DNA from: Clostridia bacterium
Lineage (GTDB): Bacteria > Bacillota > Clostridia > TANB77 > CAG-508
Assembly: GCA_017458285.1 (NCBI GenBank)
Contig: JAFTFU010000002.1
Location: forward strand, 92,171 to 156,170
Length of the DNA: 64,000 bases
Reading direction: 5' to 3'
In this document: one piece after another, positions 5,423-55,747 of the stretch
Layout: the number at the start of each line of letters is the position of its first letter
Numbering within the stretch: position 1 is the first letter of the stretch
The notes under the pieces: model-generated
The model's input: the letters and a program-made list of their open reading frames with translations, nothing else
Told to the model about the DNA's origin: nothing
Databases searched by the model: none
Program-made: the position numbers and the translations under genes

Positions 5423-5505
5423 TCCAAACTATCACTTAAAATTTAAGTTTTAAGCGATAAAACAAATAAACTAATAAAAATACATAATTGAAAGGTAGAT
5501 TAAAT

Positions 5506-8029: not shown

Positions 8030-8049
8030 TTAAAAGAGGTATAATATAA

Positions 8050-8790: not shown

Positions 8791-8989
8791 TAAAATGCCG
8801 CTTGTTTCACCGCCTAATGAAACAATTTGGGTTCAATATTTACATAATGAAATTCCAATTTACGCAATAACTTCTACTAAAATTAGAGATTGTTATTATC
8901 TATACGAAGTCAAAGACAATAAATTGATTAAAACAAAATATAAAAATAAAGACCCGACAGAGTTAGAAAAATATATTAAGTATAAATAA
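8783..8989 (+). CDS. Hypothetical small protein
   Basis: ORF only. It overlaps the upstream stop. Confidence 0.4.
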   Translation: MNNKMPLVSPPNETIWVQYLHNEIPIYAITSTKIRDCYYLYEVKDNKLIKTKYKNKDPTELEKYIKYK

Positions 8990-9001
8990 TGAGGTGATAT
9001 T

Positions 9002-9664
9002 ATGAAAGTCTTAGAGTTATTTGTTGGAACTCGCTCAATAGGAAAAGCCTTTGAAGCAAGAGGACACGAAGTATTTAGTGTTGATTGGAACAAAGATTTT
9101 GACAACATTAATTTATATAAAGACATAAACGAATTAAAAGCAGACGAAATATTAACAAAATTTGGACATCCCGATGTTATATGGATGTCACCTGATTGCA
9201 CCACGTTTTCAATCGCAGCTATCAGCCACCACCGAAGAAAAAATCAAGATAATGGCAGTCTTGAACCAATAAGCAATTATGCTAAATTTTGTGATATAGT
9301 AGATCAGCACTGCCTTGATTTGATAAGAGAATTAAACCCAAGATATTGGTTTATTGAAAATCCAAGGGGGTTAAGGAAGATGGTTTGGATGCAAGGATTA
9401 CCAAGATATACAGTTACATATTGCCAATATGGTGATAAACGAATGAAACCAACGGATATTTGGACTAATCATCCTAATCCCAAATTTAAACCACCTTGCC
9501 ACAATGGTGATCCATGTCATATTTCTGCTCCAAGAGGTGCAAAAACTGGAACTCAGGGATTAAAAGGTAGTGTTGAGCGTTCAGTGATTCCTCGCAAATT
9601 ATGTGAACACATAGTTAAAATATGTGAAGAGTCCTTAAAGACAAAACAAAGTTTTAAATGTTAA
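9002..9664 (+). CDS. Minimal C5-cytosine-methyltransferase-like protein (almost no target-recognition domain)
   Basis: Motif I-like LELFVGTRSIGKAF, motif IV SPDCTTFS with the catalytic Cys, motif VI IENPRG and motif X-like RSVIPRKL. The protein is only 220 aa. Confidence 0.65.
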   Translation: MKVLELFVGTRSIGKAFEARGHEVFSVDWNKDFDNINLYKDINELKADEILTKFGHPDVIWMSPDCTTFSIAAISHHRRKNQDNGSLEPISNYAKFCDIVDQHCLDLIRELNPRYWFIENPRGLRKMVWMQGLPRYTVTYCQYGDKRMKPTDIWTNHPNPKFKPPCHNGDPCHISAPRGAKTGTQGLKGSVERSVIPRKLCEHIVKICEESLKTKQSFKC

Positions 9665-9689
9665 TTTAATTATATACGGGGGTTTAAAA

Positions 9690-10325
9690 ATGATAAAGAT
9701 TGAAAATGTAGATGTGCATGGTGTTGCAAGAGCTATATATTCAGCAAGAAACGCAATGAATAGTTGGGATAAGTCAGATAGCAGATTTGAAACAGATACA
9801 ATGGGAGAAAACGATCTAAAACTTGCTAAACAGCTTGTTAAAGCAGGAACAGACCATGCAAAATTCATGCGAATGATAATGGTAACGCTTGACATAACTG
9901 CACCGATGTACTGGTGGAAAGAAGCCTCAACCTATAAAGTGGGAACGGTAAGAAATTCATGTAGCACAATGCACACAATTCACAAAAAAGAATTTACACT
10001 TGATGATTTTTCACATGAGCATTTACTCACCGAAAAGGAAACTGAATGGGGCGATATATGTCCGATCATCACTCTTGAATGTACGATATCTGCTTTGAAC
10101 AATTTTAGAAAAAAGTTTCTCGAAACCAAAGATAAAAAATACTGGTGGCAAATAATTCAGCTTTTACCTTCAAGCTACAATCAGAGGTCAACGGTGCAAC
10201 TGAATTACGCAGTATTGAGGAATATCTACCACAGCCGCAAAAATCACAAAATTGATGAATGGAGAGATTTTTGTAAGTGGATTGAGGGATTACCTTGCAG
10301 TGAATTGATTACGATGGAGGATTAA
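9690..10325 (+). CDS. ThyX-fold (flavin-dependent thymidylate synthase-like) protein lacking the RHR signature
   Basis: Collinear with ThyX: DHAKFMRMIMVTLDITAPMYWWKEASTYKVGTVRNSCSTMH matches HETPFEHivFtFhvkAPifvarQwfRHRiaSynElSgRY. RHR is replaced by TYK and SGRY by CSTMH. The later block LRNIYHSRKNHKIDEW matches nLRadsHAQwEI. Confidence 0.5.
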   Translation: MIKIENVDVHGVARAIYSARNAMNSWDKSDSRFETDTMGENDLKLAKQLVKAGTDHAKFMRMIMVTLDITAPMYWWKEASTYKVGTVRNSCSTMHTIHKKEFTLDDFSHEHLLTEKETEWGDICPIITLECTISALNNFRKKFLETKDKKYWWQIIQLLPSSYNQRSTVQLNYAVLRNIYHSRKNHKIDEWRDFCKWIEGLPCSELITMED

Positions 10326-10326
10326 A

Positions 10327-10575
10327 ATGAATAAAGAAGCAATAACGGTAGGAGATGTTTACACCTCAAACGAAGATAAAAATCATTATATGAAAACAAT
10401 TATTGTATTGTATTATACTTCATTTGGTGATTGCTATATTCAATCTACAGACGGTGAAGTCGTGCGTGTAACCATAAAATATTTAAGACATTATTATCAC
10501 AAAATCGGACATATTGATAAGTTCGCCGAAGCGTTGAAAGAGTTGCAAAAAATGGCGGGAAATGTTGAGAGGTAA
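10327..10575 (+). CDS. Hypothetical small protein
   Basis: ORF tightly packed between neighbouring genes. Confidence 0.45.
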   Translation: MNKEAITVGDVYTSNEDKNHYMKTIIVLYYTSFGDCYIQSTDGEVVRVTIKYLRHYYHKIGHIDKFAEALKELQKMAGNVER

Positions 10576-10581
10576 AAAGAT

Positions 10582-11295
10582 ATGAAAAAATTAAAAGTCT
10601 TAGTAGCTTGTGAAGAATCACAAAGAGTATGCACGGCGTTCCGAGAGCGTGGGCATGAAGCGTTTAGTTGTGATATCATAAAGCCCTCAGGAGGACATCC
10701 AGAATGGCACATTCTCGGAAACGCTCTAAGCGTACTGAATCCAACTGGTTACACAAATTCCATTAGTTTTCGTACTATGGACGGGAATGAGTATTTTGTG
10801 AAAAAGTGGGATTTGATTATTGCTCATCCCCCTTGCACATATCTCAGCAACGCTGGAGCGTGCAGACTCTACCCCAAAAAAAGACAACTCAACATAGAAC
10901 GATATAAACAAGGGCTTGAAGCTAAGGAGTTCTTTATGGAATTTCTAAACGCTGACTGTGAACACATAGCTGTTGAAAACCCCATACCTACACGCGTATT
11001 TGGGTTGCCAAAATATACGCAGATAATTCAGCCTTATGAATATGGACACCCATACACCAAAAAAACTTGCTTATGGCTGAAAGGGTTGCCGAAATTACAG
11101 CCTACAGATATTGTCGAGCCGATAGGACCTTATGTGTGCGGCAATTCGGAGATATGGAAGAAACAGGCGGCAAACGGTAAAGTTATCGGTAAAGAAAAAA
11201 GCGCAAAGCACCGTTCAAAAACCTTTCAAGGAATAGCAAAAGCGATGGCTGAACAATGGTCAAAATATCTTTGTGGAATCCCCGAAAACACTTGA
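10582..11295 (+). CDS. Short phage C5-methyltransferase-like protein (VLVACEESQ / HPPCTYLS family)
   Basis: Motif IV IIAHPPCTYLS, motif VI VENP and a C-terminal RSKTFQGIAKAMAEQW block. The glycine-rich motif I is absent. Confidence 0.6.
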   Translation: MKKLKVLVACEESQRVCTAFRERGHEAFSCDIIKPSGGHPEWHILGNALSVLNPTGYTNSISFRTMDGNEYFVKKWDLIIAHPPCTYLSNAGACRLYPKKRQLNIERYKQGLEAKEFFMEFLNADCEHIAVENPIPTRVFGLPKYTQIIQPYEYGHPYTKKTCLWLKGLPKLQPTDIVEPIGPYVCGNSEIWKKQAANGKVIGKEKSAKHRSKTFQGIAKAMAEQWSKYLCGIPENT

Positions 11296-11301
11296 TTGTT
11301 A

Positions 11302-11352
11302 TACCACAATATATAGTATAATACAGATATATTAACACGATATATTGTGGTA
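11302..11352. promoter_or_regulatory. 13-bp inverted repeat enclosing a TATAAT box
   Basis: taccacaatatat (11302-11314) pairs with atatattgtggta (11340-11352). TATAAT at 11317-11322 sits in the loop, with TTGATT 19 nt upstream. Confidence 0.35.
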
Positions 11353-11407
11353 ATAATGACAATAAAACTACCATTTTATTTAATATGATAATTAAAGAGG
11401 GAATAAT

Positions 11408-11620
11408 ATGAATATAGAGGAAATCATTGACAATTTAAAGTATATGATAAGCGGACAATGTACCGATACACAATACGATTTTCAAGATGAGATAAATTTT
11501 GCAATTAAAAACTTGAAAAAAGAAGTACCTATTAAGCCCATCAAAACAAGTGACCCTCGCAATGGTGATGAAATTATGATTTGTTGCGAATGTATTTCAA
11601 TAATTAAAGATGGTGAATAG
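11408..11620 (+). CDS. Small zinc-ribbon protein interrupted by an in-frame TAG (frame continues to 11689)
   Basis: CCEC precedes the stop, and CPNC follows 17 codons after CCEC in the same frame. Confidence 0.5.
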   Translation: MNIEEIIDNLKYMISGQCTDTQYDFQDEINFAIKNLKKEVPIKPIKTSDPRNGDEIMICCECISIIKDGE

Positions 11621-11678
11621 TCAGCAAAATACTGTCCTAATTGTGGTCGAAGAATAAATTGGAAACGGAGGCAATCAA

Positions 11679-12848
11679 ATGATAATTGATAACATAAATA
11701 TATCAGATAACGATATGAAACAAATCAATAAAAACACAAGAAAAGATTTTACCAGAGATGATATTTATACTTTTGAAATAACGCTATGTGATAGTGAGTT
11801 AGATGCAAATTATGAAGCTATCAGCAAAGATTGTCTATATAAATTAAAAGATTTATCCCTCGGTTCATCTGGTTTCTTAACTTCGGATATAATGGCAAGA
11901 ATTTTTGATACATATATAGAGAAAGTATTTATAAGTAGGTCAAATTCAATTTTAGCAGAAGAAACATATAAACTTAAAGCTAAAGCGTATGTTTTCAAAA
12001 ATGCTATTACCGAAGAAGAATTGAACCATATATTAAATCATTCAGAAATAAGCGTAGGATTCTCTGTTAAAAGACGAGTATGTTCAATATGTGGCAGTTC
12101 TGAATGTAGTAAACATATTAAAGGGCAGAAATATGTTGATGAAGCCGGAATTAAACAACTTTGTTATAATCTTTTAAATGACCCAACAGACTTTTATGAA
12201 TGGAGTGTTGTTCCTAAACAGCAGGAATCAAAATCAAATGATAATAAACCAAAAGAAAATAAGGTAGCAATAGTGAAAACTAAATTGATGATTAACGGCA
12301 AACTTACCGATGTTAAACTTGATGAAAATGGTGGAATAACCATAATTAAACCTAAGAAACAGGTTACTGGGTGGGAAAAATACACAAGTGTGCAAAAGTA
12401 TAATAATGAAATAATTTTTTATTTTAATGGTTTTGAAAAGATTGATAAACGAAAAGCAAATGCTAATATACTCACTGATAATAATTTATATACAATAGCG
12501 AATTATTATACAAACGAAAAGTTGGCTGAAAATATTAGTCGTATGCAGACACTTCAAAGAAAAATGTTTAGATGGCAAGCTGAAAATGATGAACCGATAA
12601 AACCTGATGCTGCTAAAACTAAATATTATATAATGTACAATATTGAAGATAAAGAATTTAATATAGGTTGTACATATACTAAACTTTTTACTTCCTTACC
12701 ATATTTTTCTTCAAGACAAAAAGCGTTACAATGTATTCATACGTTTAAAGATGAACTAATATGGTTCTTTACTGAATTTCAATGGAGAACAGACTATGAT
12801 AATAATTCAATATCTTGCAAAGAAAGTAGTGTGAACAAAAATGATTGA
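11679..12848 (+). CDS. Hypothetical two-domain protein
   Basis: The N-terminal ~190 aa contain an ISVGFSVKRRVCSICGSSECSKH Cys/His cluster. A Lys/Asn-rich linker and a C-terminal domain follow. No family recognised. Confidence 0.5.
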   Translation: MIIDNINISDNDMKQINKNTRKDFTRDDIYTFEITLCDSELDANYEAISKDCLYKLKDLSLGSSGFLTSDIMARIFDTYIEKVFISRSNSILAEETYKLKAKAYVFKNAITEEELNHILNHSEISVGFSVKRRVCSICGSSECSKHIKGQKYVDEAGIKQLCYNLLNDPTDFYEWSVVPKQQESKSNDNKPKENKVAIVKTKLMINGKLTDVKLDENGGITIIKPKKQVTGWEKYTSVQKYNNEIIFYFNGFEKIDKRKANANILTDNNLYTIANYYTNEKLAENISRMQTLQRKMFRWQAENDEPIKPDAAKTKYYIMYNIEDKEFNIGCTYTKLFTSLPYFSSRQKALQCIHTFKDELIWFFTEFQWRTDYDNNSISCKESSVNKND

Positions 12849-13404
12849 AAAGAAAATGCCTGTTATTTTACTTATAGGTGAATCAGGTTCAGGTAAAAAT
12901 ACTGTACAAGACGAACTTGAAAGGTTGTATGGTTGTGTTCCGTTGTTATCATATACAACAAGACCAAAAAGATATGATGATGAAAATACCCATACGTTTG
13001 TTACAGAAGAAGAGTTTGATAAAATCTTAAAAAACGAAAAAGTGATTGCTTTTACAAGATTTGATGAACATAGATATTGTGCTACAAACAAACAGTTAGA
13101 ACAATCAGATGTTTATATTATTGATATGGAAGGATTACAAACATTATTAGAATTAAAAACGAACAAAGAAATTAATATTCCTTTCGTTGCTTTTTACTTA
13201 CAAGTGCCTGAAGAAGAAAGAATAAAACGCATGAGAAAACGTGGTGATTCTGAGAGGGCAATTAAACAAAGAATAGAGCATGATAGAATAGCGTTTCAAC
13301 GTGCAAGCGAATTATGTGAATATACTATCGATAATATAGATAGTACCGCAACAGCAAAAATGATTTATAGTTATGTATATGATGTAGTAATGAAAAATGA
13401 TTGA
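12841..13404 (+). CDS. Guanylate-kinase-like (d)NMP kinase
   Basis: P-loop GESGSGKNT and the guanylate kinase signature-like SYTTRPKRYDDENTHTFVTEEEF. Confidence 0.7.
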   Translation: MIEKKMPVILLIGESGSGKNTVQDELERLYGCVPLLSYTTRPKRYDDENTHTFVTEEEFDKILKNEKVIAFTRFDEHRYCATNKQLEQSDVYIIDMEGLQTLLELKTNKEINIPFVAFYLQVPEEERIKRMRKRGDSERAIKQRIEHDRIAFQRASELCEYTIDNIDSTATAKMIYSYVYDVVMKND

Positions 13405-14124: not shown

Positions 14125-14182
14125 AATTATAGTGAAAAAAATAGTTATTATAATGTATTATATACATGGAGGGACACTTATT

Positions 14183-15358
14183 ATGTCAAGCAATAAGCGT
14201 AAAAAAATTGCAAAAAATCTATATTACGACAGCGACAGAAAACTTTATTATGTTAAATTTTATTATGGTATTATCAACGGCAAACAACAACAAGAATGGA
14301 AAACATACAAAACTAAAAACGATGCTACTAAAGCATTAAAACTTTTTGAAATCAACAGAGATGACGGAAGGAGTCTTGACCCATCAAAGCAAACACTTAC
14401 AGAGTTCCTTGACTATTGGTTGAAATATAAATCTACTCGTTGCGAATACACTACTATATATGGATATAAAAATATTATAAATAAATATTTAATTCCACAT
14501 TTAGGTAAAATGGCTTTAAAAAAAATACAGCCTACTCATATAATAACTTATATGAGTAATATTTCGGCAGAAGGTTTATCAAATAATACAATAAAAAAGC
14601 ACTATGATTTATTGAAATCAGTATTTAAACAAGCTGTAATAGAAGATAAAATTCCATTTAATATAATGGAAAAAGTCGAGCCACCTAAAATACAAAAAAA
14701 GGAAATGTCATTTTACACCATAGAAGAGTTAGCTCTTCTGTTGGATATCATCTCTGCAAAGCCTGCCCTTGACATTGCCGTTCATATTGCTGTTTATACA
14801 GGACTTAGAAGAGAAGAAATTCTTGGCTTGAAATGGGATTGTGTTGATTTTGATAATTCAATTTTTACAATCAAAAAAGCAATCACTAAAGCAGGAAGTA
14901 CAGTTATAGAAAAAATGCCAAAAACAAAAGGTTCTTATAGAAAAATAAGAATACCTGATTATCTTTTGCAAAAACTTAAAGAATACAAACAAATTCAAAT
15001 TAGAAATGCTCGGTTGTTTGGGAATAATGAATATGAATATATTTTTTGCAAACCAGATGGAGGTTTTTATCATGTAAATTACATCTCGACTATGTTTAAA
15101 AATGTAATCGAACAATATAATTTAAAACCCATTCGATTTCATGACCTAAGACATACTTTTGCATCCATAGCACAAGAATGTGGTATTAGTATTTTTGAAA
15201 TCAGTAAGGCATTGGGTCACAGTACTGTGGCTACTACATCTAATATTTATACCCATCTATTTGATGACACTCACGCAAAAGTTATAGATGGTGTGGCACA
15301 AGGCATAGATATGGCAAGAAATAAATTAAATTTAATTAATTCACAAAAAAATCAATAA
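14183..15358 (+). CDS. int: Tyrosine integrase
   Basis: Catalytic R (GLRREE), HxxR (RFHDLRHTFAS) and LGHS...NIYTH tyrosine. GGAGGG lies 9 nt before ATG 14183. Confidence 0.9.
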   Translation: MSSNKRKKIAKNLYYDSDRKLYYVKFYYGIINGKQQQEWKTYKTKNDATKALKLFEINRDDGRSLDPSKQTLTEFLDYWLKYKSTRCEYTTIYGYKNIINKYLIPHLGKMALKKIQPTHIITYMSNISAEGLSNNTIKKHYDLLKSVFKQAVIEDKIPFNIMEKVEPPKIQKKEMSFYTIEELALLLDIISAKPALDIAVHIAVYTGLRREEILGLKWDCVDFDNSIFTIKKAITKAGSTVIEKMPKTKGSYRKIRIPDYLLQKLKEYKQIQIRNARLFGNNEYEYIFCKPDGGFYHVNYISTMFKNVIEQYNLKPIRFHDLRHTFASIAQECGISIFEISKALGHSTVATTSNIYTHLFDDTHAKVIDGVAQGIDMARNKLNLINSQKNQ

Positions 15359-15425: not shown

Positions 15426-16130
15426 CTATACCTCCATTAATGTATTTGCGTTAAGAGCATAATATTGTTTTCCATCATTGCATGGGTATACACTATTAGC
15501 CGTAACCGTACTGCAATCTTTCATTCCTATTATCTCATCTACTTTTTGCGTTCCTGATAATATTATTTTAGATGTTGAAACATCAATATCTACACCTGAT
15601 TCGCCACCAACATAATTAAATCGTGTTCGTGTTTTATACGGTTGATTGTTTAGGTCATAAAAATCTGTGTCGATTGCGGGGCTCGAAATATACGAACTCG
15701 AACCGGCATATTTATAAGCGTAAATGTTTTCTAAATTATTGCATTTAACGAAAATAAACTCATCATGCCACTTATCACTTCCACTAAATGTGGGTGGGAT
15801 AAGCTTCAAATCAATGCAATTATCATTCTCTGCGTATAAAACTTGTAGTCCACGCTCGGCAGATGCAATAGAAGAAGTCTGTGTAGATGTAGGTAGCCTT
15901 GTCTCAGAAGCTATTTCCGTGTCATTAACAAAAAGTGTCATTGTTACATAATACCAGTTTGAGTCTGGCACAAAGGTTATTTTATAAATATCATCGATAA
16001 TAACACCTTTATCTGTTTCGCTGTCAATTCTTTTAATTCTATCGCTCAATGAAGTTAAGCCGCTTAGAATTACTTCCATTGTCTCATCGCTACCGTAACC
16101 ATATCTTGTAAAGCGTTTTAGAATATACAT
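15426..16130 (-). CDS. Hypothetical protein (last gene of the late operon)
   Basis: ORF with a packed context; no motif recognised. Confidence 0.5.
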   Translation of the reverse strand: MYILKRFTRYGYGSDETMEVILSGLTSLSDRIKRIDSETDKGVIIDDIYKITFVPDSNWYYVTMTLFVNDTEIASETRLPTSTQTSSIASAERGLQVLYAENDNCIDLKLIPPTFSGSDKWHDEFIFVKCNNLENIYAYKYAGSSSYISSPAIDTDFYDLNNQPYKTRTRFNYVGGESGVDIDVSTSKIILSGTQKVDEIIGMKDCSTVTANSVYPCNDGKQYYALNANTLMEV

Positions 16131-28521: not shown

Positions 28522-31500
28522 TTATATGTGATATTTTTTTAGAGAACTTCCTCCGAAAAGCCTGTCAGTAGTCATGGATTTGATTAAAGATTCAAACTTC
28601 TTATCGTGCTGCATGGCATAAATAAATTCATCATAGTTCTTTACGTTTGGCAAATTGAAATTAACATTATCCAAACTGACAGAGATACTATTCGTATTAT
28701 TACTAATATTTGGTGCAACATCAGAACTATTATTATCAAATAAATTATCTTTGATAAATGCACTGGGGTCATTCATCATACTAAATAAATTGGAAGTTGC
28801 ATTGCCATTTAAAATCATATCTCCTTTGGCGAGAGGGGTAAGGATAGCACCGTCAGAAGGTCTAATGATTGCTTCGGGAATACTATTCTCTTGTGTCCAC
28901 GCCATTTGAGATTTGTTGACTGATTGCGTACCTTGCTTAAATTTTGGAACACCGCTCAAACCACTCAAAAAACTTTTAGCATTACGTGTAATATCACCAA
29001 CACCGCTCAAACCACTCAAAAAACTTTTAATATTACTTGTATTAGAACTATTGTTTTTTGTAGCAGACTTAGAATTTGTGTTCTTTACATTTGTATCATT
29101 ATTAGCTTTTTTATCAAGAGCGGACACCATCGTATTAACACTGTTTGTCAAAGAATTGATAGCACTAATAACATTTGTAGTGGCATTAGTAAAATTAATC
29201 CCATATTCAGATAATACAGGTTGTGCGCCACCTTTCCAAATATTATTCATAGTAGAAGAAATTTTATAACCAACATCACTTGCTTGTTCAATCAGTGTAT
29301 CTTTGATAACATTAGCATCTTCATTAATATTTACAATCATATCAGAGATTAAACTATCAACATCGTCTAATCTTTCGTTCAATACCTTTTCATATTCATT
29401 ATACAAATCATCAAGCAATTTCTTTTGGTCGCTAACAAATTTATCGTATTGCGTTTCTTCCAGATTTTCTTTTGCTTCTTCCAAAGATACTTTAATTTGT
29501 TGTACTTTTGACTTTGTTTCTTCGGATGTATCGCCTGTATAAGCGGCTAATTGTTTCTGTAATGAGGTTATTTCCTTGGTTTGATCTTTAATCTTTTTTT
29601 GATAATCGTATAAATCTTTCTGACTATCTAACGCCTCATTATACTTATCAATTAGATCCTGTAAGGCATTTAACTCTAATTCAATGCCTTCTTTGACCAT
29701 ATCTACAATAGCCTGTTTTTCATCCTCGGCAGATAAAATCATCTGCTGTTGTAATTTCAGCAGCTCTTCTCTGCGTTCTGCAAGGTCTTGATTATAAGGG
29801 TCTTTCGCCAACTGTTTGTCAATTTTAATGATTTCTTTAGCGTACTTATCAGCTTGTGCCATATAAGTATTATAATTAACTCCATGCAACCCCATAGTAG
29901 CCTTGCCATTATTTGTAAGTTGTCCAGCACCTTGACCTTCTTCTTTGTAAAGCTTGTCATTTTGCATAAGTTTAATCAAAAAATCAGACTCTTGCGTTAT
30001 TTGAGATATCTTCTCTTGAATTAAATCAAAAATTTGCCACTTAATATCTCTTATAGAGTTATTAAATTCAATAAGAGATGTCGTTGATTGTTGAATGGCA
30101 ATATCAGTCTTTTCGATTTCATCCGTTAATTCATACCATGCTTGCGAACCAACTTTTATATCACCCGATGCAATCGCTGTTTGTAATTTAATGGATAATT
30201 CATTTTTCTTAGAAACAAGTTCGGCGTTATTTTTCTTTTCATTTTTTATCTGTGCTTCGTAATATTTCGTACTAACAAGATAGCCCTTTGCCTGAGTTTG
30301 TGCAATACTCTCATTTAATTTAGTTGCTTGATTTGTAATCTGGTTAAGCTTGTTATCGTGTTTAGTAGCGATATCATTAAATTCTTCAACGGCTAATTCA
30401 TGAATTGTTTTCTTGTATTCCTCGGCGTTTTCTTTTGCCTTTTTAATATTCTCTGTCCATTCGTACCAAGCTTTACTGTATTTTTGAATATCACCATTTT
30501 TTACCGCTTCGCCAAGTTTTTTCTGTAACTCACTTGCTTCGTTTAAAGCATAAACACTTTGTTGTTTATATGCCGACCTTAAACCACTGTAATTTTTAGT
30601 GGTTTTGCGTGTAGTATCACTGGCTTTAGTTTCAATCATACTGATTTTACTGCCATATGTTCCACTACGATTTTCCCAACGTGTTTGTATATCGCCAAGT
30701 TCTTCAACTGCTAATTGATGTCTTGCGTTTGCGGCTTGTCTCGCATTTGATTGAGCGTTCTTGATATCAGTTTTGTATTTATAATAATCATCATCGCCAA
30801 CTTTGATTCTGCCATGTTTGATATCATCTTGAAGTTGACCATACAGATTCGCTGCCTTGTCCGTTTCGTATTTTTCAGTTTTCTTATAATTTTTGCCAAG
30901 CTTTTTATAATTCTTGTTTATAGACCGTGTGTCCTTATCGAGATTATTATAATAATCACTATCGGCATTGATATAATTAATTCTGTTTTCATAATATGTT
31001 TCAATATTATCTAATCGTTGTCTTATATATTCTTTTTCAGTCTCTTTTAAATCTGAAACCGCATCCCTACAACTAATAGCTTTATCATACAATTCCTGAT
31101 AATTTTCTATCTTTTCTTTCAAATCAGCATTTTTTATTTCAGAAAGATTTATGCCACCTTCCCGTACAGCCTTTTTCCAATAACTACCAAGACCTACCTT
31201 ATTAGCTTCGTTCATATAATAACCATAAGCATTTTTATTAAAGGAAATTTCTTTTTCAATAGCGTTGATTGATTTTGAAATCTGTTTATTTTTCCCTTTA
31301 AAAGTGATATAATCTCCGACTTTTGAAAACACTTGTTTGGTATTATTAGCGAATTTCTTTAATCTACGTTCAATCCAATCGAAAACTTTTCCAGTCTCAG
31401 TTGTTGACGTATCTAACCCCGAATCACTTGAATCACCTGAGCTTTTTGTATTGCCAGTCAATTTATTCCATGTGTTAGTCGTGATTTTGTAAGGTTTGAT

Positions 31501-34281
31501 GAGTTCATCTAAGACTTTTTCTAATGCTGCATTGCCAGATCGAGTAAATTGTCCATGATCTCTATAATTAGCATAATCAGCATAAGTTAAGCCATAAGAT
31601 GATAATAAAGCATTTATTTTTTCTTGTGCTTCTGGCGAAGCATATCTTTTTAATTTACCAGTGTTTTTATCTAAAAATGCGCCACTTTTACTGTCATTAT
31701 CAATTATATTGTTAATCTTAGAATATACTTGCGATTCTTCAAAATGTTTTTGTATTTCGGCTTTAGCTTTAATCGCATTAGAAAAATTAGTAATGTCATC
31801 ATTATATAATTGTCCGAAATCTTTAATGAGTTTGCCTTGTTTAGATAATAATTCTGCATTAGTATTTTGTAATGCTGCCTTTTTAATTTCAGATAAATTA
31901 TCCCAATTAGTAATATCAATTCCATAAAAGTCATTAAAATACTTTATCTCATCTTGAATTTGTTTTATAGAATCGCCTAATAAGTTTTCATTATCTTTTT
32001 CTTTCTCTTGAACTGCTTTATGATACGCCTCATAGTCATTTTCATACATTTCAGCGTTGTACAAATCTTCATAAGCATCTTTTTGTTTAGCAACTAATTC
32101 AGTAATAGCAGTTTGCATACCTTCCATATCATTGATATATGGACGTAAAGATTGATAAGTGTCATCTGTCATTATAGTGTCGATACTGGAAAGCGATAAA
32201 GAACCATTTTCGCTGATTTCTTTTGTAAAACCAATAAGAGTTGATATACTACTTGATACACCTTTAATAGCCTTTTGAATGTCCTCAATTAAAGTCTTAG
32301 TGTCTTTAAGTTCAGGCTTTAACTGCTTTAATGCGGCAATCATACTTTGAATAGATTTTTTCGCTTCATCAGATAAATCCTGTGTATTTAGTACTTTTTC
32401 TAATTGACCTATTAATTCTTGTGGACGTTCTTTTATTACCTTATCTATTCCTTCTGCTAAATTGCCAAACTTTTCATCTGTCCAGTCAACATATTCGCCA
32501 AGAGTAGGGAAGAGGTCAACTAATTCAACAACATCATTTGTTGTTAATTTTCCAGCAAAAAGGTTTTGATATGCTTTGTTGAGTTTATCAACATCGGAAT
32601 GAACAGATTTTAATTCTTTTGTTTGGTCTTTGGATAATGCAAAAGATGATTCATCGTTTTTTTCTGCGACCTTTGTTTTAACAATTCCAAGTTTTTCTAA
32701 TGCACCAATATATTGTTCAACTGTAATTTCAGCTTGACCAGTAGCATCAGTCATACCGTTCCATAAATCTATATAACCTTTAATATTATCATATAAATTT
32801 TTCTCATCACCCGACAAAGATTCGTAATTCAAATCCCCTTTTGATAATATTGAATTAATATCATCAGATGTATAATTATTCTTATTAACAATTTCTTTTA
32901 TTTTATTACTATAACCATCGGGCGAACCTTCCAATTCTGCTTGAACATCAACAATAATAGGTGTTTCTTTTGATTGTTGGTACACTTGTTTTTGTACATC
33001 AGCAAACCAATTTTTTATACTTTCACCAGAAACATTATCCTCATCAACAAAATCAAGATTAAATATATCATGAAAAATGTCACGTAATTCAGTGTATGCT
33101 TGCGTGATTTCATCTTGATTGCCTGAAGCAAGTGCCTCTGTATAAGCCTTTTTCTTTTCAACTATTTTTTCGTAATATTCAGAATACTTATCATCAGTCA
33201 ATATCAGATTTTCTACAGCCGTATCATAAATCGTTTTATTAGTTTTATATTCATCACTACTTAATAATTCACTTTTTCTTTCTAATATTTCTGATTTTAA
33301 TTCCTTAAATCCTTGTAATTCTTGTTGTTCATACCAATTTAAACTATCTTTAGACTCATATTCCTTTATTTTAGTTTCTACGGCATTATGAAATTCATCC
33401 ATAGTAGCCAAAATTTCATCAATAGTACCACTAAATCCAACTTGTGTGCCGCTACTATTAGGCATAATATAAATATTTTTACCATTTTCATCAGCCCATT
33501 GGTTTATCCATTTTTTACTACTAACTTGTTGTCCGCTTCCCCAATTAACACCCAAGAAACTATTTCCGTTAAAATATTGATTAGCGTTTTTAGTTTCTGT
33601 AACATGAGTATCGTTCCAGTTTTTTGCCGCTTCTTTTTTTAATTGGATTAAAGCACTGGTTTCACCTTGTATAGATTCAGTTATATAACCTACAGCATCC
33701 TTTTCCTGACCATATTTCTTTATCAGTTCTTCTTGAATTTCGAGTAATTGTTTTCTTTTTTCTGTAGCTTCTGTTTGAGAAATACTATCATAATTTAAAG
33801 CTGTTTTTAAATCATTAATTTTACTAATATAACTATCAATATCATCAAAAGATTTTTTTAAATCATTTGCGCTATCAGCAACATCTTCAATGCTATTAGA
33901 CCAATTAGAAAATACCGTAACAGCAGTCGAAACAACACCAATTACTGTTGCTGCTGCAACCGCTATCGCACCAATAGGATTGCTTGCCATCGCTACTGTC
34001 AAACCTCTAAAAGCAGCACTTAAACCACCTGTTGCCGTTGTCAACGCTCCTGTGGATGCAGTTGCTGCCATTTCGGCTTGTGAAGCTGCTAAAGTAGCAG
34101 CAATTTGTTTTGCCTCTGCCTCAACAACACCATGATTCATAAGAATTTGTTGCATCTGTTCTTTATTTAATCCTGTCTTAACAAGGCAAGCCTTTAAATC
34201 TTCTACAGACATATTTTTAGTTACGGTATTAACTAATTCTAAACTTGTCGCACCCTCAATTCCCAGAATTTTTAATTGCAA
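28522..34281 (-). CDS. Tape measure protein, C-terminal portion (no recognisable RBS; only a TTG start)
   Basis: Gly/Ala-rich hydrophobic segment (ATGGLSAAFRGLTVAMASNPIGAIAVAAATVIG), more than 1500 aa of coiled coil, a duplicated KSFLSGLSGV motif and a terminal IPEAIIRPSDGAILTP block. Confidence 0.75.
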   Translation of the reverse strand: MQLKILGIEGATSLELVNTVTKNMSVEDLKACLVKTGLNKEQMQQILMNHGVVEAEAKQIAATLAASQAEMAATASTGALTTATGGLSAAFRGLTVAMASNPIGAIAVAAATVIGVVSTAVTVFSNWSNSIEDVADSANDLKKSFDDIDSYISKINDLKTALNYDSISQTEATEKRKQLLEIQEELIKKYGQEKDAVGYITESIQGETSALIQLKKEAAKNWNDTHVTETKNANQYFNGNSFLGVNWGSGQQVSSKKWINQWADENGKNIYIMPNSSGTQVGFSGTIDEILATMDEFHNAVETKIKEYESKDSLNWYEQQELQGFKELKSEILERKSELLSSDEYKTNKTIYDTAVENLILTDDKYSEYYEKIVEKKKAYTEALASGNQDEITQAYTELRDIFHDIFNLDFVDEDNVSGESIKNWFADVQKQVYQQSKETPIIVDVQAELEGSPDGYSNKIKEIVNKNNYTSDDINSILSKGDLNYESLSGDEKNLYDNIKGYIDLWNGMTDATGQAEITVEQYIGALEKLGIVKTKVAEKNDESSFALSKDQTKELKSVHSDVDKLNKAYQNLFAGKLTTNDVVELVDLFPTLGEYVDWTDEKFGNLAEGIDKVIKERPQELIGQLEKVLNTQDLSDEAKKSIQSMIAALKQLKPELKDTKTLIEDIQKAIKGVSSSISTLIGFTKEISENGSLSLSSIDTIMTDDTYQSLRPYINDMEGMQTAITELVAKQKDAYEDLYNAEMYENDYEAYHKAVQEKEKDNENLLGDSIKQIQDEIKYFNDFYGIDITNWDNLSEIKKAALQNTNAELLSKQGKLIKDFGQLYNDDITNFSNAIKAKAEIQKHFEESQVYSKINNIIDNDSKSGAFLDKNTGKLKRYASPEAQEKINALLSSYGLTYADYANYRDHGQFTRSGNAALEKVLDELIKPYKITTNTWNKLTGNTKSSGDSSDSGLDTSTTETGKVFDWIERRLKKFANNTKQVFSKVGDYITFKGKNKQISKSINAIEKEISFNKNAYGYYMNEANKVGLGSYWKKAVREGGINLSEIKNADLKEKIENYQELYDKAISCRDAVSDLKETEKEYIRQRLDNIETYYENRINYINADSDYYNNLDKDTRSINKNYKKLGKNYKKTEKYETDKAANLYGQLQDDIKHGRIKVGDDDYYKYKTDIKNAQSNARQAANARHQLAVEELGDIQTRWENRSGTYGSKISMIETKASDTTRKTTKNYSGLRSAYKQQSVYALNEASELQKKLGEAVKNGDIQKYSKAWYEWTENIKKAKENAEEYKKTIHELAVEEFNDIATKHDNKLNQITNQATKLNESIAQTQAKGYLVSTKYYEAQIKNEKKNNAELVSKKNELSIKLQTAIASGDIKVGSQAWYELTDEIEKTDIAIQQSTTSLIEFNNSIRDIKWQIFDLIQEKISQITQESDFLIKLMQNDKLYKEEGQGAGQLTNNGKATMGLHGVNYNTYMAQADKYAKEIIKIDKQLAKDPYNQDLAERREELLKLQQQMILSAEDEKQAIVDMVKEGIELELNALQDLIDKYNEALDSQKDLYDYQKKIKDQTKEITSLQKQLAAYTGDTSEETKSKVQQIKVSLEEAKENLEETQYDKFVSDQKKLLDDLYNEYEKVLNERLDDVDSLISDMIVNINEDANVIKDTLIEQASDVGYKISSTMNNIWKGGAQPVLSEYGINFTNATTNVISAINSLTNSVNTMVSALDKKANNDTNVKNTNSKSATKNNSSNTSNIKSFLSGLSGVGDITRNAKSFLSGLSGVPKFKQGTQSVNKSQMAWTQENSIPEAIIRPSDGAILTPLAKGDMILNGNATSNLFSMMNDPSAFIKDNLFDNNSSDVAPNISNNTNSISVSLDNVNFNLPNVKNYDEFIYAMQHDKKFESLIKSMTTDRLFGGSSLKKYHI

Positions 34282-34305
34282 TATAATTAAAGGCTATAAA
34301 GTTAC

Positions 34306-34334
34306 TTGACATTATTCAAATAAAACGATATAAT
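34306..34334 (+). promoter_or_regulatory. Perfect consensus promoter, antisense to the late operon
   Basis: TTGACA (34306-34311), a 17-nt spacer, then TATAAT (34329-34334). Confidence 0.7.
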
Positions 34335-34359
34335 ATTATCAAAAAGGTAGGTGTTGTAT

Positions 34360-34680
34360 ATGAGTGATAATATTCGTACTATCGGAATAATAGATTATGA
34401 TTGTCCGTTTTGTCATCATAACAAATCTTATGTTAAAATGTATTTAGAATATACAGAATTTGGTGAATGTATGTCTTGTGGGAAAGAGACTTATCAAAAG
34501 GTTTTAAAAACATTTGACTTTAATAAACCAAAATCTGTTCAATGTCCTTATTGTCATTCAACAAATACTAAAAAAATATCCACAACTTCAAAAGTTGGTA
34601 GTGTTGCCCTCTTTGGTATTTTTGCCGCCGGCAAAGTTGCTAAAGAATGGCATTGTAATACTTGTAAAAGTGATTTTTAA
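34360..34680 (+). CDS. Double zinc-ribbon small protein with a hydrophobic segment (moron-like, antisense to tail genes)
   Basis: CPFC...CMSC and CPYC...CNTC pairs with a VGSVALFGIFAAGKVA segment between the second pair. It has its own promoter, SD (aaggtagg) and terminator. Confidence 0.65.
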   Translation: MSDNIRTIGIIDYDCPFCHHNKSYVKMYLEYTEFGECMSCGKETYQKVLKTFDFNKPKSVQCPYCHSTNTKKISTTSKVGSVALFGIFAAGKVAKEWHCNTCKSDF

Positions 34681-34684
34681 TTTT

Positions 34685-34710
34685 AACCGTCATAGAAATA
34701 TGGCGGTTTT
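34685..34710 (+). terminator. Rho-independent terminator of the antisense gene
   Basis: aaccgtcat / atggcggtt 9-bp stem (one G-T wobble) running into TTTT. Confidence 0.55.
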
Positions 34711-35146
34711 GCATATTTGGAACATACATTAACAGCACATAAAATGTGGCTTTTATGTACTGCAAGGAATGGTGTCCTCTGAACATTCCCATTATTCAAA
34801 CTTTTATCCCGACATCGCTTGCACGATTGCTACTATCGGATTATATAGTTTTATCTTTCGACTAATGGGTGTGCTGCCAGTTACCAATTATATATCTGTC
34901 CGGCATCATTTTTTAGCCGTAGAAATCTCACTCCTGCTATTCAACAGTTTGACTTTTTTGCCTTATTTTTCGGCTACCCTCAAAATAGGGAAGAGGGTGT
35001 AGTGAGCATTATGGTTTCAGGCAATTTTTCCTTTGTTTGTTTGAAAACTCCCTTCTTATAGAGTTATCCTTATCGCCATTATGATAATTCTTCCCCTATA
35101 ATAGACCAATAACATCTTCTGGGTGATGTTGTAAACTCTCAACGAG
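34711..35146 (-). ncRNA. Structured non-coding segment inside the split tape-measure gene (candidate intron core)
   Basis: Visibly richer in G/C than the flanks. On the minus strand there are several stems: AUCGU-GCAA-GCGAU (34814-34827) nested in CCGA/UCGG, UAGCCG/CGGCUA (34914-34919/34971-34976), ACCCUC/GAGGGU, GGAAUG/CAUUCC and AACAUC/GAUGUU (35111-35130). Confidence 0.3.
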
Positions 35147-38100
35147 TCAATCCAAGTTTTTGATAAACGCAGTAATACCTACTGCTGCGATTGTAGTGCC
35201 TAATGCACCAAAGGCGTGTGTTATGCCATCTACAATATCAACTATTCCTGATGATCCATCAACTAAGAATTTTATTAAATCAGATGATAAGACTGTATTA
35301 GATAATGCTTGCCAAGAAGCGTTAAGTGCATCTAATTTGCCTTCCATACTTTGCATATACTTTTCGTTTTCTGCTGCTGCCGTTCCCTCGGCGTTAGATG
35401 CCGCATTAACTGCTTTTTCAACATTTGACCAGTTGTTTATAAGAGCTGCAACACTGTTAGCTCTCTGTTTTCCTGCAACAGTTTCAAGCAAGTCTGCACG
35501 CGATGTATCAGTAAGTTCATTCCAAATAGTACTAATCTCTTTAAATATCTGATATGTACTTTTAAAATCGCCATTATCTTTAAAAATATTTACTTTTCCA
35601 TTTGTAAGATTAAGTATATGAGTTTGCATTTTTGAAATTGACTCTACATTCTCATCTACTTCTTCGCCAATTTCTTCAAGCTGCCCCTTCATTCCTCTCA
35701 AACGCAAACTAACGACATTCAGTGTAGTACCTGCTTGTTCGGCGTTTTGCGTTACTTCTACTATACCTGTATTCATTCCTGCGGCTTCTTCAAATGTATT
35801 TCCAGCCATTTGGAGTGACGATGCTGACCTTTGCAGACTTTCACCAACATTAGCAGCGGTAACGGCAAATTCATTGCCCAATTTGTCGTACACGTCAGCT
35901 ATTTTCATTACTGCTTCAGTAGAATCACCATTAGATACTTGTAATAATTCGTCTTGATAACCCTTATAAGCTGTTACTAAATCCTTTACAGCAGTGTCGT
36001 TATCCAAATCTGTAACGTGCTGATACATAGCAGTTATTTCAGCTAATTTATTTGCCGTATTTGCTTCAAATCCAAGGCGTACCCAACTGGCAGTAGATTC
36101 AATAATGTCATTTAATGCAACACCATATTTCTTTGCACCAGCAACCATATTATCATACAACTGACTATATTGTTTATCCGTTAAATCAGTAACACGATAT
36201 AATTCAGTCATAGCAGTGTCAACTTTAAGTACATTGTCAAACATTGACTTTACGCCATTAATAGCATAAGAAATCATCATTGAAGCTGAAAAATAGGTAG
36301 CCAATGAGCCTAATTTACTTTTCAATTTATCGCCTAATGTCATTGTGGCTTTTCCTGCTGACATTATCTGGCTTTCGAGTTCTTTAACTTCTCTTTTCAG
36401 ATTAGTTAATTTTATATCATCTGCTGATTCTATTTCATTTTTTATCTGTTGTAATCTTGCACCAAATTGAGGTATAGCAGCAGAATATTTTTTAAACATC
36501 AAATCAATTTGCGTTGTTAATGCTGTTTTCTTGTTAGCAAGATTAGCTTCATCTTTTAATTTTTGCTGTTCTATTCGTAATGTCTTTATTTCATTTTGTA
36601 ATGTAACTAATGTTTTACCGAATTGTGTATAATCACCTGTAACTTTTTCAATATCGTCACCACTGGCTTTCATACTGCCTAACAAACTTCTTAATTCTTG
36701 CGTTTTAAGGTTTATTTCATCTTCTGTTTTACCTAATCGTCTATAATTATTTTCGATAGTAGCAATTTGATTTTCTAAAGTGCCATTCTCGATATTGCCT
36801 TTAATAGAATTAAGACCACTCTTTTTAACATCGTTGATTTTAGCTTGAACAGTTGCCATTTTATCAATAGTGGTTTGTAATGCACTATTAATTTCTGCTG
36901 TTTGCTCTGTGCTAAATTTTGAATCAAACGATTGTCGTGTTGCTTGATATGTAGCTTGCAATCTTTCTAATTGTGCCTCTAATTCTAAAATTTGGTTACT
37001 ATCTTTTGTTCCGTCTAATTTCAATAAATTAGTTTGAATATTTCTAATTTGTTGTATAGTAGATAATAATTCTTTATATGCGGTAGTTACTTTATCGGTT
37101 TCAGCTTTTTCCGCTTGTTTTCCAATTTGCTGCTCTGCTTGCAATGCTTTAAATTCTGCTTTAGCGACAACAAGCATATTCAAATATTCCGTTAGAGACT
37201 GCCTATCAGTAACCCCACCAAGTTTTACACTTAAATCACTTATACTATATGATTTTAGCTGCTCCAGTGCTATACCGATTGATTTTATTTTAGCTTCAAA
37301 TTCTCGTAATAATTGTATTTGTTCGCCTTTTATTGTTTCAATAGGTTTTGCTCTTAGCTGATTAGCCATTGATTCAACTTCACGATATATTTTAACTTGC
37401 GACCGTATTTCAGCAATAGCCGCTTTAACACTTGCTTCTGAAGATGCAAAACTTTCTTTTGTAGCTGTACCTAATGTGTTTACTTTTGCAATAGCTTCAT
37501 CATATAAAGAATTTAAGTGTTCTATATTTTTTGAATTTTGAATTGGTTTACTCGCATTAACATCAAGATATTCGTCTTTAAGAATTTTTAACTTTGAAGT
37601 ATAATTAGTAACAGCAGCAGTATTTCTCTCGGTTTGTTTTCTATCGGTTTCAAGTTGACGAGCATAATTATCACTACCAGTAGAACCAGAATATTGATAG
37701 CTTTGCCCGATTACTTTTCCTTTGCTATTTTCTATATTCGCTAAATTATATTTTAAAGATTCGATCTCTTGGTTGACATTTTTTACTTCTACTGTGAAGC
37801 CAGTAATTTCGCTTTTCGCATTTCTAAAAGGCTTAGTAGTTACTTCGCCAAATTTTCCAAAATAATTTCTCGTTACTTCAAAAAGTTTTTGTTCGTCCTG
37901 AATTATACCATTAATTTCTTCTTCAAATTCTTTTCGCACAGAAGAATTAATTAATTTAATTTCTACAGGCTTAATTTTTTGTACTGTTTGATTTGTGTTT
38001 TTTACAATATTATCGACTTGTTTTGTTATGTTCGATGAATTTATATTGCTGTTTACAACTACATTTATCTTACAATTATTTAAATTATCTAATTGATTTC

Positions 38101-38254
38101 TTATATTTTTAATTCTTGTTTCAATCTGAGAATCATCGATTTTTAATACAATAGGATTTTCACTTAATTTATTTATATCCTTTTGTATCTTTTCAAACTC
38201 GCCATTTTTTAATTGCAAACCTAATGCAATAGAAAAATCTTCCATAACCATCAC
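35147..38254 (-). CDS. Tape measure protein, N-terminal portion with TP901-type core
   Basis: Long coiled coil, then MTELYRVTDLTDKQYSQLYDNMVAGAKKYGVALNDIIESTASWVRLGF, a tape-measure core region. A strong SD (aaaggagag) precedes the start cluster. Confidence 0.8.
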   Translation of the reverse strand: MMVMEDFSIALGLQLKNGEFEKIQKDINKLSENPIVLKIDDSQIETRIKNIRNQLDNLNNCKINVVVNSNINSSNITKQVDNIVKNTNQTVQKIKPVEIKLINSSVRKEFEEEINGIIQDEQKLFEVTRNYFGKFGEVTTKPFRNAKSEITGFTVEVKNVNQEIESLKYNLANIENSKGKVIGQSYQYSGSTGSDNYARQLETDRKQTERNTAAVTNYTSKLKILKDEYLDVNASKPIQNSKNIEHLNSLYDEAIAKVNTLGTATKESFASSEASVKAAIAEIRSQVKIYREVESMANQLRAKPIETIKGEQIQLLREFEAKIKSIGIALEQLKSYSISDLSVKLGGVTDRQSLTEYLNMLVVAKAEFKALQAEQQIGKQAEKAETDKVTTAYKELLSTIQQIRNIQTNLLKLDGTKDSNQILELEAQLERLQATYQATRQSFDSKFSTEQTAEINSALQTTIDKMATVQAKINDVKKSGLNSIKGNIENGTLENQIATIENNYRRLGKTEDEINLKTQELRSLLGSMKASGDDIEKVTGDYTQFGKTLVTLQNEIKTLRIEQQKLKDEANLANKKTALTTQIDLMFKKYSAAIPQFGARLQQIKNEIESADDIKLTNLKREVKELESQIMSAGKATMTLGDKLKSKLGSLATYFSASMMISYAINGVKSMFDNVLKVDTAMTELYRVTDLTDKQYSQLYDNMVAGAKKYGVALNDIIESTASWVRLGFEANTANKLAEITAMYQHVTDLDNDTAVKDLVTAYKGYQDELLQVSNGDSTEAVMKIADVYDKLGNEFAVTAANVGESLQRSASSLQMAGNTFEEAAGMNTGIVEVTQNAEQAGTTLNVVSLRLRGMKGQLEEIGEEVDENVESISKMQTHILNLTNGKVNIFKDNGDFKSTYQIFKEISTIWNELTDTSRADLLETVAGKQRANSVAALINNWSNVEKAVNAASNAEGTAAAENEKYMQSMEGKLDALNASWQALSNTVLSSDLIKFLVDGSSGIVDIVDGITHAFGALGTTIAAVGITAFIKNLD

Positions 38255-55461: not shown

Positions 55462-55499
55462 ATATTCACACTACTTTCTTTTGTTTTTATTTAGTTTGG

Positions 55500-55671
55500 T
55501 TATTGGTAGGGCGACGTATCCTACATTTCGGATACCTTTCCGGATGTATCGGAAACCATTTCCGCTCTCAATAACCTAATAAGGCACAGTGACAGACTAT
55601 AAAGCCTACCGCTGTGCCGACCCGTAAAGAGTATATCTTTGTTTATAAGACCCGCAAGGGGTAGAATTGTT
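55500..55671 (-). ncRNA. G/C-enriched structured RNA segment between the tRNA and the next gene
   Basis: Stems: ACCC-GCAA-GGGT tetraloop hairpin (55650-55661), GGCACAG/CTGTGCC (55583-55618), TTTCCG/CGGAAA (55537-55555) and mutually exclusive GTAGG/CCTAC versus GTATCC/GGATAC pairings (55506-55536). Confidence 0.35.
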
Positions 55672-55747
55672 TGGGTGCAGAGGCAAGACTTGAACTTGCA
55701 ATCTTCAGGATATGAACCTGCCGAGCTACCATTGCTACTACTCTGCA
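55672..55747 (-). tRNA. tRNA with CAU anticodon (Met or lysidine-modified Ile2), CCA encoded
   Basis: 76 nt. Acceptor TGCAGAG/CTCTGCA, discriminator C plus CCA. Anticodon stem GCAGG/CCTGA with loop TTCATAT. T-arm GCAAG-TTCAAGT-CTTGC. The D-arm (TAGC-AATGGTA-GCTC) is slightly irregular. Confidence 0.65.

Follow-up and report, generated by a model that had tools for sequence, protein, structure and literature searches.

Introduction

As a rule, a group I intron is empty or encodes a homing endonuclease that helps it to spread, and such introns are already known from genes for phage virion proteins. Here we describe an unusual candidate member in a 64,000-nucleotide (nt) stretch of DNA from a Clostridia bacterium (assembly GCA_017458285.1, contig JAFTFU010000002.1, positions 92,171 to 156,170; this whole stretch is called the window), in which a phage gene for the tape-measure protein (TMP) is interrupted by an insertion. 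As judged from the sequence and its relatives, the insertion is probably a self-splicing group I intron that restores a single TMP of 2953 amino acids (aa) while hosting an independently expressed accessory gene, referred to as the cargo, in antisense orientation.

Several described systems share parts of this arrangement. Nuclear ribosomal DNA (rDNA) contains group I introns with antisense genes for His-Cys box endonucleases. The IStrons of Clostridioides difficile (CdISt1) carry a cargo with an IS200/IS605-type transposase that makes the chimera mobile, and in the nrdD/sunY intron of phage T4 the core is followed on its 3' side by an open reading frame (ORF) for a sense-strand endonuclease, with a remote 3' splice site. 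Prophage morons are independent promoter-gene-terminator units that sit between late genes. In Cluster J mycobacteriophages, spliced group I introns are found in capsid and tail genes, and the capsid intron of mycobacteriophage LittleE has a LAGLIDADG ORF on its bottom strand (PMC3706429). The record of Clostridium phage phiCD211 (NC_029048) annotates an 'Intron_gpI' between two TMP coding sequences, an annotation that was not reproduced at the Rfam gathering score.

The window insertion resembles the introns of Cluster J and phiCD211 in being a self-splicing-type intron in a late structural gene, with a U before the 5' site and a terminal G. The likeness to phiCD211 extends to the host gene, a TMP from the same group of large siphoviruses (29% identity), although the phiCD211 intron lies inside the PF10145 region and hence at another TMP site. 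It differs from both in that its ribozyme lineage is undetected by the Rfam group I model RF00028 and its cargo is not a homing endonuclease. With LittleE and the rDNA introns it shares a protein gene opposite to the intron RNA strand, but theirs are homing endonucleases for mobility, whereas the window's is a 106-aa zinc ribbon with a promoter and a terminator. As in the IStrons and T4 nrdD, the core is followed by several hundred nt of cargo and then by a 3' splice site far from helix P7; here, however, the cargo is antisense and encodes neither a transposase nor a sense-strand endonuclease. Like a moron, it appears to have a sigma-70-type promoter and an intrinsic terminator and opposes the late operon of a temperate phage; unlike a moron, it would lie inside an essential gene, where only RNA splicing could make it harmless. 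What sets it apart is the RF00028-invisible ribozyme lineage, a passenger that is non-nuclease, antisense, self-promoted and conserved across the family, and an extra exon-binding helix.

Results

An insertion with precise boundaries splits the tape-measure gene

The window phage has a complete, intact virion operon on the minus strand, in which the TMP is spread over two ORFs. The upstream ORF (35147..38254, minus strand) matches PF10145 PhageMin_Tail, the TP901 tape-measure core, at aa 708-928 (E 7.8e-18), and its start is preceded by the Shine-Dalgarno (SD) sequence AAAGGAGA. The downstream ORF (28522..34281, minus strand) measures 1919 aa when counted from TTG 34281, its sole possible start, and no purine-rich SD was found in the 28 nt 5' of this triplet (tcaagtaactttatagcctttaattata). 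The gap between the two halves holds an ORF on the plus strand. An initial annotation, made from the letters of the window alone, had read this as a TMP gene split by an insertion, with a downstream half devoid of translation signals. Both points stand, since the two ORFs are as it described them and uninterrupted relatives encode both halves in one ORF.

These relatives, found by means of the exon-1 protein, have one-ORF TMPs of 2581 aa (L001), 3100 aa (L002), 3067 aa (L006) and 3057 aa (L007). Across the insertion site L001 reads ...GFVKNFGKLKELGF..., and its GFVKNFG-KLKELGF aligns with AFIKNLD-QLKILGI of the window if GAU (35152-35150) is joined to CAA (34278-34276); L001 and L002 both have KNFG-KLKELG at this site. 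With the predicted junction peptide as query, we then retrieved the protein P0125, which is uninterrupted (...TAFIKNLDQLKNLG...) and comes from L039, an intron-less allele from a metagenome. The DNA of L039 is TTTATCAAAAACTTGGAT followed directly by CAATTAAAAA, and the exon ends of the window are identical to it over 24 + 10 nt. The alignments to L001 and L039 fix the insertion point: the insertion runs from 35149 to 34279 on the minus strand (871 nt), with U before it and G as its last base, and its boundaries are unambiguous because the intron starts with T but exon 2 with C, and exon 1 ends in T but the intron in G. Neither terminal inverted repeats nor a target duplication were found at the insertion ends, which share only short repeats at chance level.

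Measured against L039, the initial annotation had the 5' junction right, after GAU 35152-35150, as well as the stop codon at once behind it, an in-frame UGA with which the insertion begins. It had also expected a joined product of about 2950 aa, and the ORF made by joining GAU to CAA has 2953 aa without an internal stop. The inserted segment, which it gave as 34282-35149, is corrected to 34279-35149, and its 3' junction at CCU 34293 lies 15 nt too far upstream, exon 2 beginning with CAA 34278. A join at CCU 34293 was rejected, as it would add PLIIL, absent from L001 and L039. The pattern of a U before the 5' site and a terminal intron G (omega-G) that it had recognised is present, but the omega-G is position 34279 and does not come from the TAG it had named. 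Likewise TTG 34281 is the only start available to the second ORF, but the triplet belongs to the insertion.

The match between the window and L039 at the exon ends (35150-35173 and 34269-34278) holds even at synonymous sites, while the proteins share just 46% identity overall. Such a match may be the mark of a homing site or of co-conversion, or may reflect a constraint that the guide pairings set out below impose.

The element recurs at the same site in related phages

Searches with the antisense protein and with two conserved DNA motifs, both short, recovered the same element at the same TMP site, immediately after ...F(I/V)KN(F/L)(D/G), in more than 25 contigs. The copies come from IMG/VR viral contigs, rumen-type metagenomes, metagenome-assembled genomes of Clostridia and the isolate Ruminococcus sp. 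YE282 (at about NZ_FMUV01000001.1:120324-121232), so that a cultured host with a copy exists. A blastn search of the gap against 50,697 phage records gave no match. The last intron base is G in 8/8 distinct 3' ends. Five of these have ATG as the triplet before exon 2, two have TTG and one (L020/L027) has AAG; because of this AAG, the second ORF of L020/L027 is without any start codon. No SD before exon 2 was found in any copy.

Identity in the ribozyme part is 79-81%, as against 62-64% in the flanking coding exons, and no conserved ORF was found there on either strand. Selection in the ribozyme part thus appears to act on the RNA, not on coding.

A covarying group I core escapes the Rfam model

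The first 15 distinct copies were fished with a 19-mer from the R element. From these, RNAalifold predicted unaided most of the helices listed in Table 1, and the group I map on the 15 sequences has 97.3% of cells paired, compared with 37-45% in slid controls. Changes on both sides are seen in 32 pairs, as against 2-5 under sliding, and 0/500 shuffles attain the pairing or covariation values. Since P7 could not vary among copies fished with the R element, the scan was repeated with a P6 motif, which brought in diverged copies, among them those of a 'group B' whose motif is the more canonical GUUCAACGAGCA. The resulting 18 more diverse sequences have 96.8% of cells paired and 38 compensatory pairs; in this set all cells of P7 pair (100%), three of its pairs being compensatory, and a bulged A or C is followed by an invariant G-C (columns 500/557). 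Compensatory pairs number two in P3, six in P6 and six in P8, and both hairpins behind the 5' splice site form in every copy, from differing sequences.

The helices P3-P4-P5-P6-P7-P8 follow one another in canonical group I order, with the P3/P7 pseudoknot. By eye, and with no scoring model, we compared core order and junction motifs with the RF00028 consensus: AAAUUGCUUGAA resembles AAUUGCGGgAAA, AACGAGCAGCG resembles AAuCCGCAGCC, GUUCAGAGGACA (or the group B motif given above) resembles GGUUCAaAGACUA, and UUAAUGUAUGUUCC resembles GAAGAUAUAGUCu. A local hairpin GGAA(C)...UUCC at the R element, considered in place of P3, was rejected because L023 and group B compensate in the P3 register.

The Rfam check for introns of group I or of group II that the initial annotation had proposed returned no intron family, either for window positions 33800-35600 at E<=10 or for the window at the gathering score; RF00028 does detect two ordinary group I introns in the relative L004. 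Relied on alone, this check would wrongly have dismissed the intron idea. As to group II introns and their domain V/VI, there was no Rfam match, the insertion starts with UGACUC and not with GUGYG, and no reverse transcriptase ORF was found. On the best reading, the insertion would belong to a group I lineage that the Rfam model does not recognise, sitting in phase 0 between D1035 and Q.

Guide pairings and an extra helix connect the intron with its exons

The internal guide (Table 1) makes five of five P1 pairs and five of six P10 pairs in the window. In L014 and L017 the guide 5'-UAAUUG-GUC-3' is perfectly complementary to the ligated GGU-CAAUUA, with P1 and P10 on one contiguous guide. The U.G wobble at the 5' splice site is present in 18/18 copies, and P10 has 4-6 of 6 pairs in every copy for which both exons are known.

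An extra 7-bp helix connects exon 1 with the segment between P2 and P3, with 99% of cells paired in the 15 sequences and 95% in the 18. Its compensatory changes, seen in the window, L020, L025 and group B copies, hit exon codons (AAG->AAA, AAC->GAC) in independent copies. The helix may be a further site of exon binding that holds a weak P1 in place, and a covarying exon-intron helix outside P1 would make exon recognition by a group I ribozyme bipartite. The same seven pairs as the true P1, with splicing after ACUU, were rejected: there is no frame-restoring 3' site ending in G, and the U.G is not conserved there.

An antisense zinc-ribbon gene with its own expression signals

The cargo unit occupies the 3' 430 nt of the intron. 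The initial annotation had posited an independently transcribed antisense gene, and the unit's own promoter, ribosome-binding site (RBS) and terminator point to just that. The terminator consists of a 10-bp hairpin (-13.1 kcal/mol on the plus strand, z -3.0; -8 kcal/mol on the minus strand) followed by UUUUG, and is predicted to end antisense transcription 5-10 nt before P7 of the ribozyme. An antisense gene is present in every copy with a readable 3' part, and each time it comes with a promoter, a GGAGG-type RBS and a terminator hairpin of its own. In L014, L017 and L019 the -35 hexamer TTGCAT is the complement of the intron-final AUG plus the CAA of exon 2, and the promoter there straddles the splice junction; the conserved 'ATG' before exon 2 may be due to this overlap.

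Homologues of the cargo (n=157; alignment A3) have variable zinc-ribbon N-termini and an almost invariant C-terminal module, CPYC-x30-CxxC-SDF (CPYCHSTNTKKIS..SK.GS.ALFGIF..GK..K.WHCNNCKSDF). Differing codons comprise 344 synonymous and 419 non-synonymous changes, a ratio that marks the cargo as a real coding gene under constraint (purifying selection). Pfam scans of the cargo gave only generic zinc-ribbon matches and no transposase or recombinase domain; PF12760, a transposase-type zinc ribbon, weakly matches 21/35 members of the family. Nothing informative came from PHROGs and PADLOC scans, and an AlphaFold model of the cargo has a pLDDT of 73 and found no significant match in a fold search of the PDB. 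No LAGLIDADG, GIY-YIG, HNH, His-Cys or PD-(D/E)XK endonuclease was found in the intron, and the cargo itself has no nuclease motif; it is therefore not a recognisable homing endonuclease. Its layout resembles the LITAF-like order of CxxC, hydrophobic segment and HxCxxC, with a hydrophobic stretch of just ~12-15 residues; the match of PF10601 (LITAF-like) to the window cargo is weak (E 0.06), and this family is outside the top families for 35 relatives.

Table 1. Features of the split tape-measure gene, the predicted intron and its cargo in the window (positions are those of the window; RNA letters on the minus strand)
Feature	Position	Strand	Description	Basis
TMP exon 1	35150..38254	-	1035 codons; ends ...AFIKNLD; last base U of GAU = 35150	ORF and PF10145 match; junction from L039
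TMP exon 2	28522..34278	-	1918 codons + stop; first codon CAA = Q of ...NLD-QLKILG...	spliced ORF; L039 junction
Group I-type intron (predicted)	34279..35149	-	871 nt; starts UGA (in-frame stop), ends ...UAUAUUG; omega-G = 34279	absent exactly from L039; homologues; covariation
Extra helix, exon strand AAAACUU	35154..35160	-	exon positions -11..-5; pairs with 35044-35050	
Two hairpins right after 5' splice site	35111..35149	-	UGACUC/GAGUUU 35149-35133; AACAUC/GAUGUU 35130-35111, loop ACCCAGAA	RNAalifold
Internal guide 5'-UUAUUG-GUCUA-3'	35102..35112	-	GUCUA with exon-1 UGGAU (P1); UUAUUG with exon-2 CAAUUA (P10)	
P2 UUAUAG/CUAUAA around P2a UUAUC/GAUAA	35056..35101	-	conserved P2a loop AUAAUGGC	compensatory pairs in both
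Extra helix, intron strand GAGUUUU	35044..35050	-	between P2 and P3	RNAalifold found independently
Catalytic core overall	34717..35033	-		
P3 AAGGAA/UUCCUU	35033-35028/34769-34764	-	J3/4 AAA	
P4 UUGCCU/UGGCAG	35024-35019/34879-34874	-	J4/5 GAA	
P5	35015-35012/34886-34883	-	branched extension	
P6 CCCAUUA/UAAUGGG	34869-34863/34794-34788	-	with extension; J6/7 ends GUUCA	
P7 G[A]GGACA/UGUUCC	34779,34777-34773/34724-34719	-	bulged A 34778; J7/3 CCA	
P8	34762-34751/34744-34733	-	12 bp; J8/7 UUAAUGUA	
Hairpin + U-run	34685..34712	both	plus: intrinsic terminator of cargo; minus: P9-position hairpin just after P7	
Antisense cargo gene	34360..34680	+	106-aa zinc-ribbon protein, 4 CxxC; ATG 34360, stop 34678-34680	
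Cargo RBS AGGUAGGUG	~34345-34353	+	strong	sequence
Cargo promoter	34306-34334	+	TTGACA 34306-34311, 17-nt spacer, TATAAT 34329-34334	12/12 consensus match

Discussion

Proposed mechanism

The proposal of a group I intron with an antisense gene, made in the initial annotation, gains comparative support from the precise absence of the insertion in L039, the U and terminal G at its ends, the covarying core and a guide that would read both exons. From such comparisons we infer the splicing as well as the timing of cargo expression and the function of the cargo. In the mechanism that we favour, the ribozyme in the late transcript would fold into P1-P10, and the 5' exon would be held by the short P1 (UGGAU/GUCUA, with the U.G at the cleavage site) together with the 7-bp helix to the P2-P3 segment, while P10, formed with the guide nucleotides immediately 5' of those used in P1, would align exon 2. 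Splicing initiated by guanosine would then join GAU to CAA and give a single 2953-aa TMP; across the copies the predicted spliced junction is ...AACUU(C/G)G(A/G)U joined to CAAUUAAA.... The in-frame UGA, as the first intron codon, would keep ribosomes out of the ribozyme. On the opposite strand a sigma-70-type promoter would drive the cargo, and the intrinsic terminator would halt antisense transcription just before the ribozyme core. Because the phage carries an integrase and is temperate, the cargo would most likely be expressed from the prophage, in the manner of a moron, while the late operon is silent, and the intron would make an insertion in an essential gene harmless.

Some features of the locus weigh against this mechanism. 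P1 is short (3-5 bp, with 5 bp in the window and 3 bp in the majority of copies), its loop is large, the guide lying about 40 nt beyond the 5' splice site with two hairpins in between, and we know of no standard group I element that corresponds to the extra exon-binding helix. RF00028 gives no match to the 1.8-kb slice even at E<=10. No convincing conserved P9.0 was found, a search for a closing stem being inconsistent between copies (the stem that closes the cargo is strong in L009, L018 and L026 and weak in the window copy), nor was an alignable helix to draw the 3' splice site, which lies 438 nt past P7, towards the core. Convergent transcription from the strong antisense promoter could interfere with late expression, and, as most copies have ATG or TTG before exon 2, separate initiation there is formally conceivable.

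Competing explanations

Each of the competing explanations accounts for less of the evidence than a spliced intron does. If there were no splicing, the phage would make two polypeptides, of 1035 aa and, from TTG 34281, about 1919 aa, and the insertion would be a moron cassette joined to a conserved structured RNA of another role, for example in transcript stabilisation or regulation. Such a reading would fit the fact that in most copies the second ORF opens directly with ATG or TTG, as well as an Rfam search that sees no intron and the splitting of the TMP into several ORFs in some related phages (L005), yet an SD is absent in every copy although the antisense gene and the upstream ORF have strong ones, and L020/L027 have AAG at this position, not a start codon. 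Two separate proteins would moreover leave unaccounted for a full group I core with its P3/P7 pseudoknot, a guide complementary to both exon ends, intron nucleotides that covary with exon nucleotides, and an insertion that, set against the intron-less allele, has U before it and G at its end, and we consider the absence of splicing distinctly unlikely. The element could also be a descendant of a group I intron that no longer splices, in this copy or in the whole lineage, with the TMP as a pseudogene in a defective prophage, which we regard as about equally unlikely. One copy, L019, is clearly dead, with a transposase in the ribozyme, and in the window copy the last pair of P4 and the opening pair of the first hairpin are both U.U; all core helices nevertheless pair in the window copy, its exons are intact over 2953 codons within a wholly intact structural operon, and compensatory change maintains the structure across at least 18 diverged copies.

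The insertion could also be a mobile element at the DNA level, be it an insertion sequence (IS), a miniature inverted-repeat transposable element or an integrative cassette, or else a gap that ribosomes bypass or recode. The weak resemblance of the antisense protein to transposase-type zinc ribbons (PF12760, 21/35) speaks for the former, but its domains are only generic zinc ribbons with no transposase or recombinase among them, and the ends are without terminal inverted repeats or target duplication. Stops in all frames stand against bypass or recoding, and a ribosomal bypass of 871 nt is to our knowledge without precedent. Explanations of this kind are highly improbable in our estimation.

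Related cargo in other interruptions of tape-measure genes

Members of the cargo family also lie antisense in other TMP gaps, namely at 5480-6822 in L032, 4927-5944 in L033 and 4746-6130 in L035/L036; the L032 gap has three antisense genes, and L036 holds a second copy of the family in another gap (8337-8834). The intervening sequences of L032, L033/34 and L035/36 are not alignable with the window ribozyme, and Rfam found nothing in the TMP gaps of L032, L033, L035 and L036. The L033 gap has a canonical-looking core, CCCCAGAGACUGCCA...AAAUAUACAGUCC. One cargo homologue, L037, lies outside an obvious phage context.

In L004, an element of 0.8 kb (9204-10015) with the R-like motif GTTCAGAGACTACC splits the TMP ~20 codons further downstream than in the window. 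This element has an unrelated antisense ORF of 108 aa, with two transmembrane segments and a zinc ribbon, and a strong terminator; Rfam misses it, and finds group I introns further down the same TMP (14366-14653) and in the next gene (15516-15799). L005 encodes its TMP in three ORFs, and the gaps between them, 6072-6535 (464 nt) and 7802-8003 (202 nt), have no Rfam match and may be further unrecognised introns. With MAFFT, the window gap could not be aligned to the gaps of L004, L005 and phiCD211, which are different elements.

The presence of the same cargo family in unrelated ribozyme sequences (L032, L033, L035/36), and of a different small membrane/zinc-ribbon gene in the same arrangement in L004, suggests a functional partnership between cargo and intron. 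The cargo might, for example, be a prophage factor against DNA injection by superinfecting phages, or a factor needed by the intron. The combined proposal that self-splicing TMP introns of large temperate Clostridia phages are safe harbours for lysogeny-expressed accessory genes with promoters of their own, that cargo and intron are functional partners, and that the 5' exon is recognised in two parts is a tentative one, and as a whole we lean slightly against it.

If the cargo is expressed from the prophage, the intron would let an accessory gene live inside an essential late gene, which would be a new route of moron acquisition. The true product of the window gene would be one 2953-aa protein, and this bears on the inference of tail length. 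More generally, because Rfam misses a whole group I lineage, giant TMP genes in phages of the gut and the rumen are being recorded as broken or as two or more genes.

Variation among copies and the genomic setting

In L019 (JAQXZA010000054.1), a transposase gene or IS replaces everything 5' of the R element, upstream of 3346; the intron copy is evidently dead and the TMP truly broken. L017, L021 and L030 share an insert of ~80 nt with its own hairpins in the P5b loop (alignment A2, columns ~170-250), which is typical of peripheral ribozyme variability. In L044 (IMGVR_UViG_2531839012_000002, 4954-13250), a group B intron copy begins at 8365 after ...AFIKNFD and has an elaborate P9 domain. In L044 and the other group B copies, resumption of the TMP was not found in the DNA examined, which in L044 extends for at least 4.4 kb with ORFs on both strands. 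Further upstream, the TMP of L044 is also interrupted, by a sense ORF of 345 aa that is CxxC-rich and has an EYDGEQH-type endonuclease-like motif.

The window is from a large temperate phage, recognised as such by a tyrosine integrase (14132-15358, plus strand), an anaerobic ribonucleotide reductase, NrdD (1889-4216, plus strand), two DNA methylases and SNF2/RecD-type helicases. Between blocks of the virion operon, a skipping-rope RNA (RF02924, 57.7 bits; 55498-55576, minus strand) adjoins a tRNA gene (55675-55747, minus strand).

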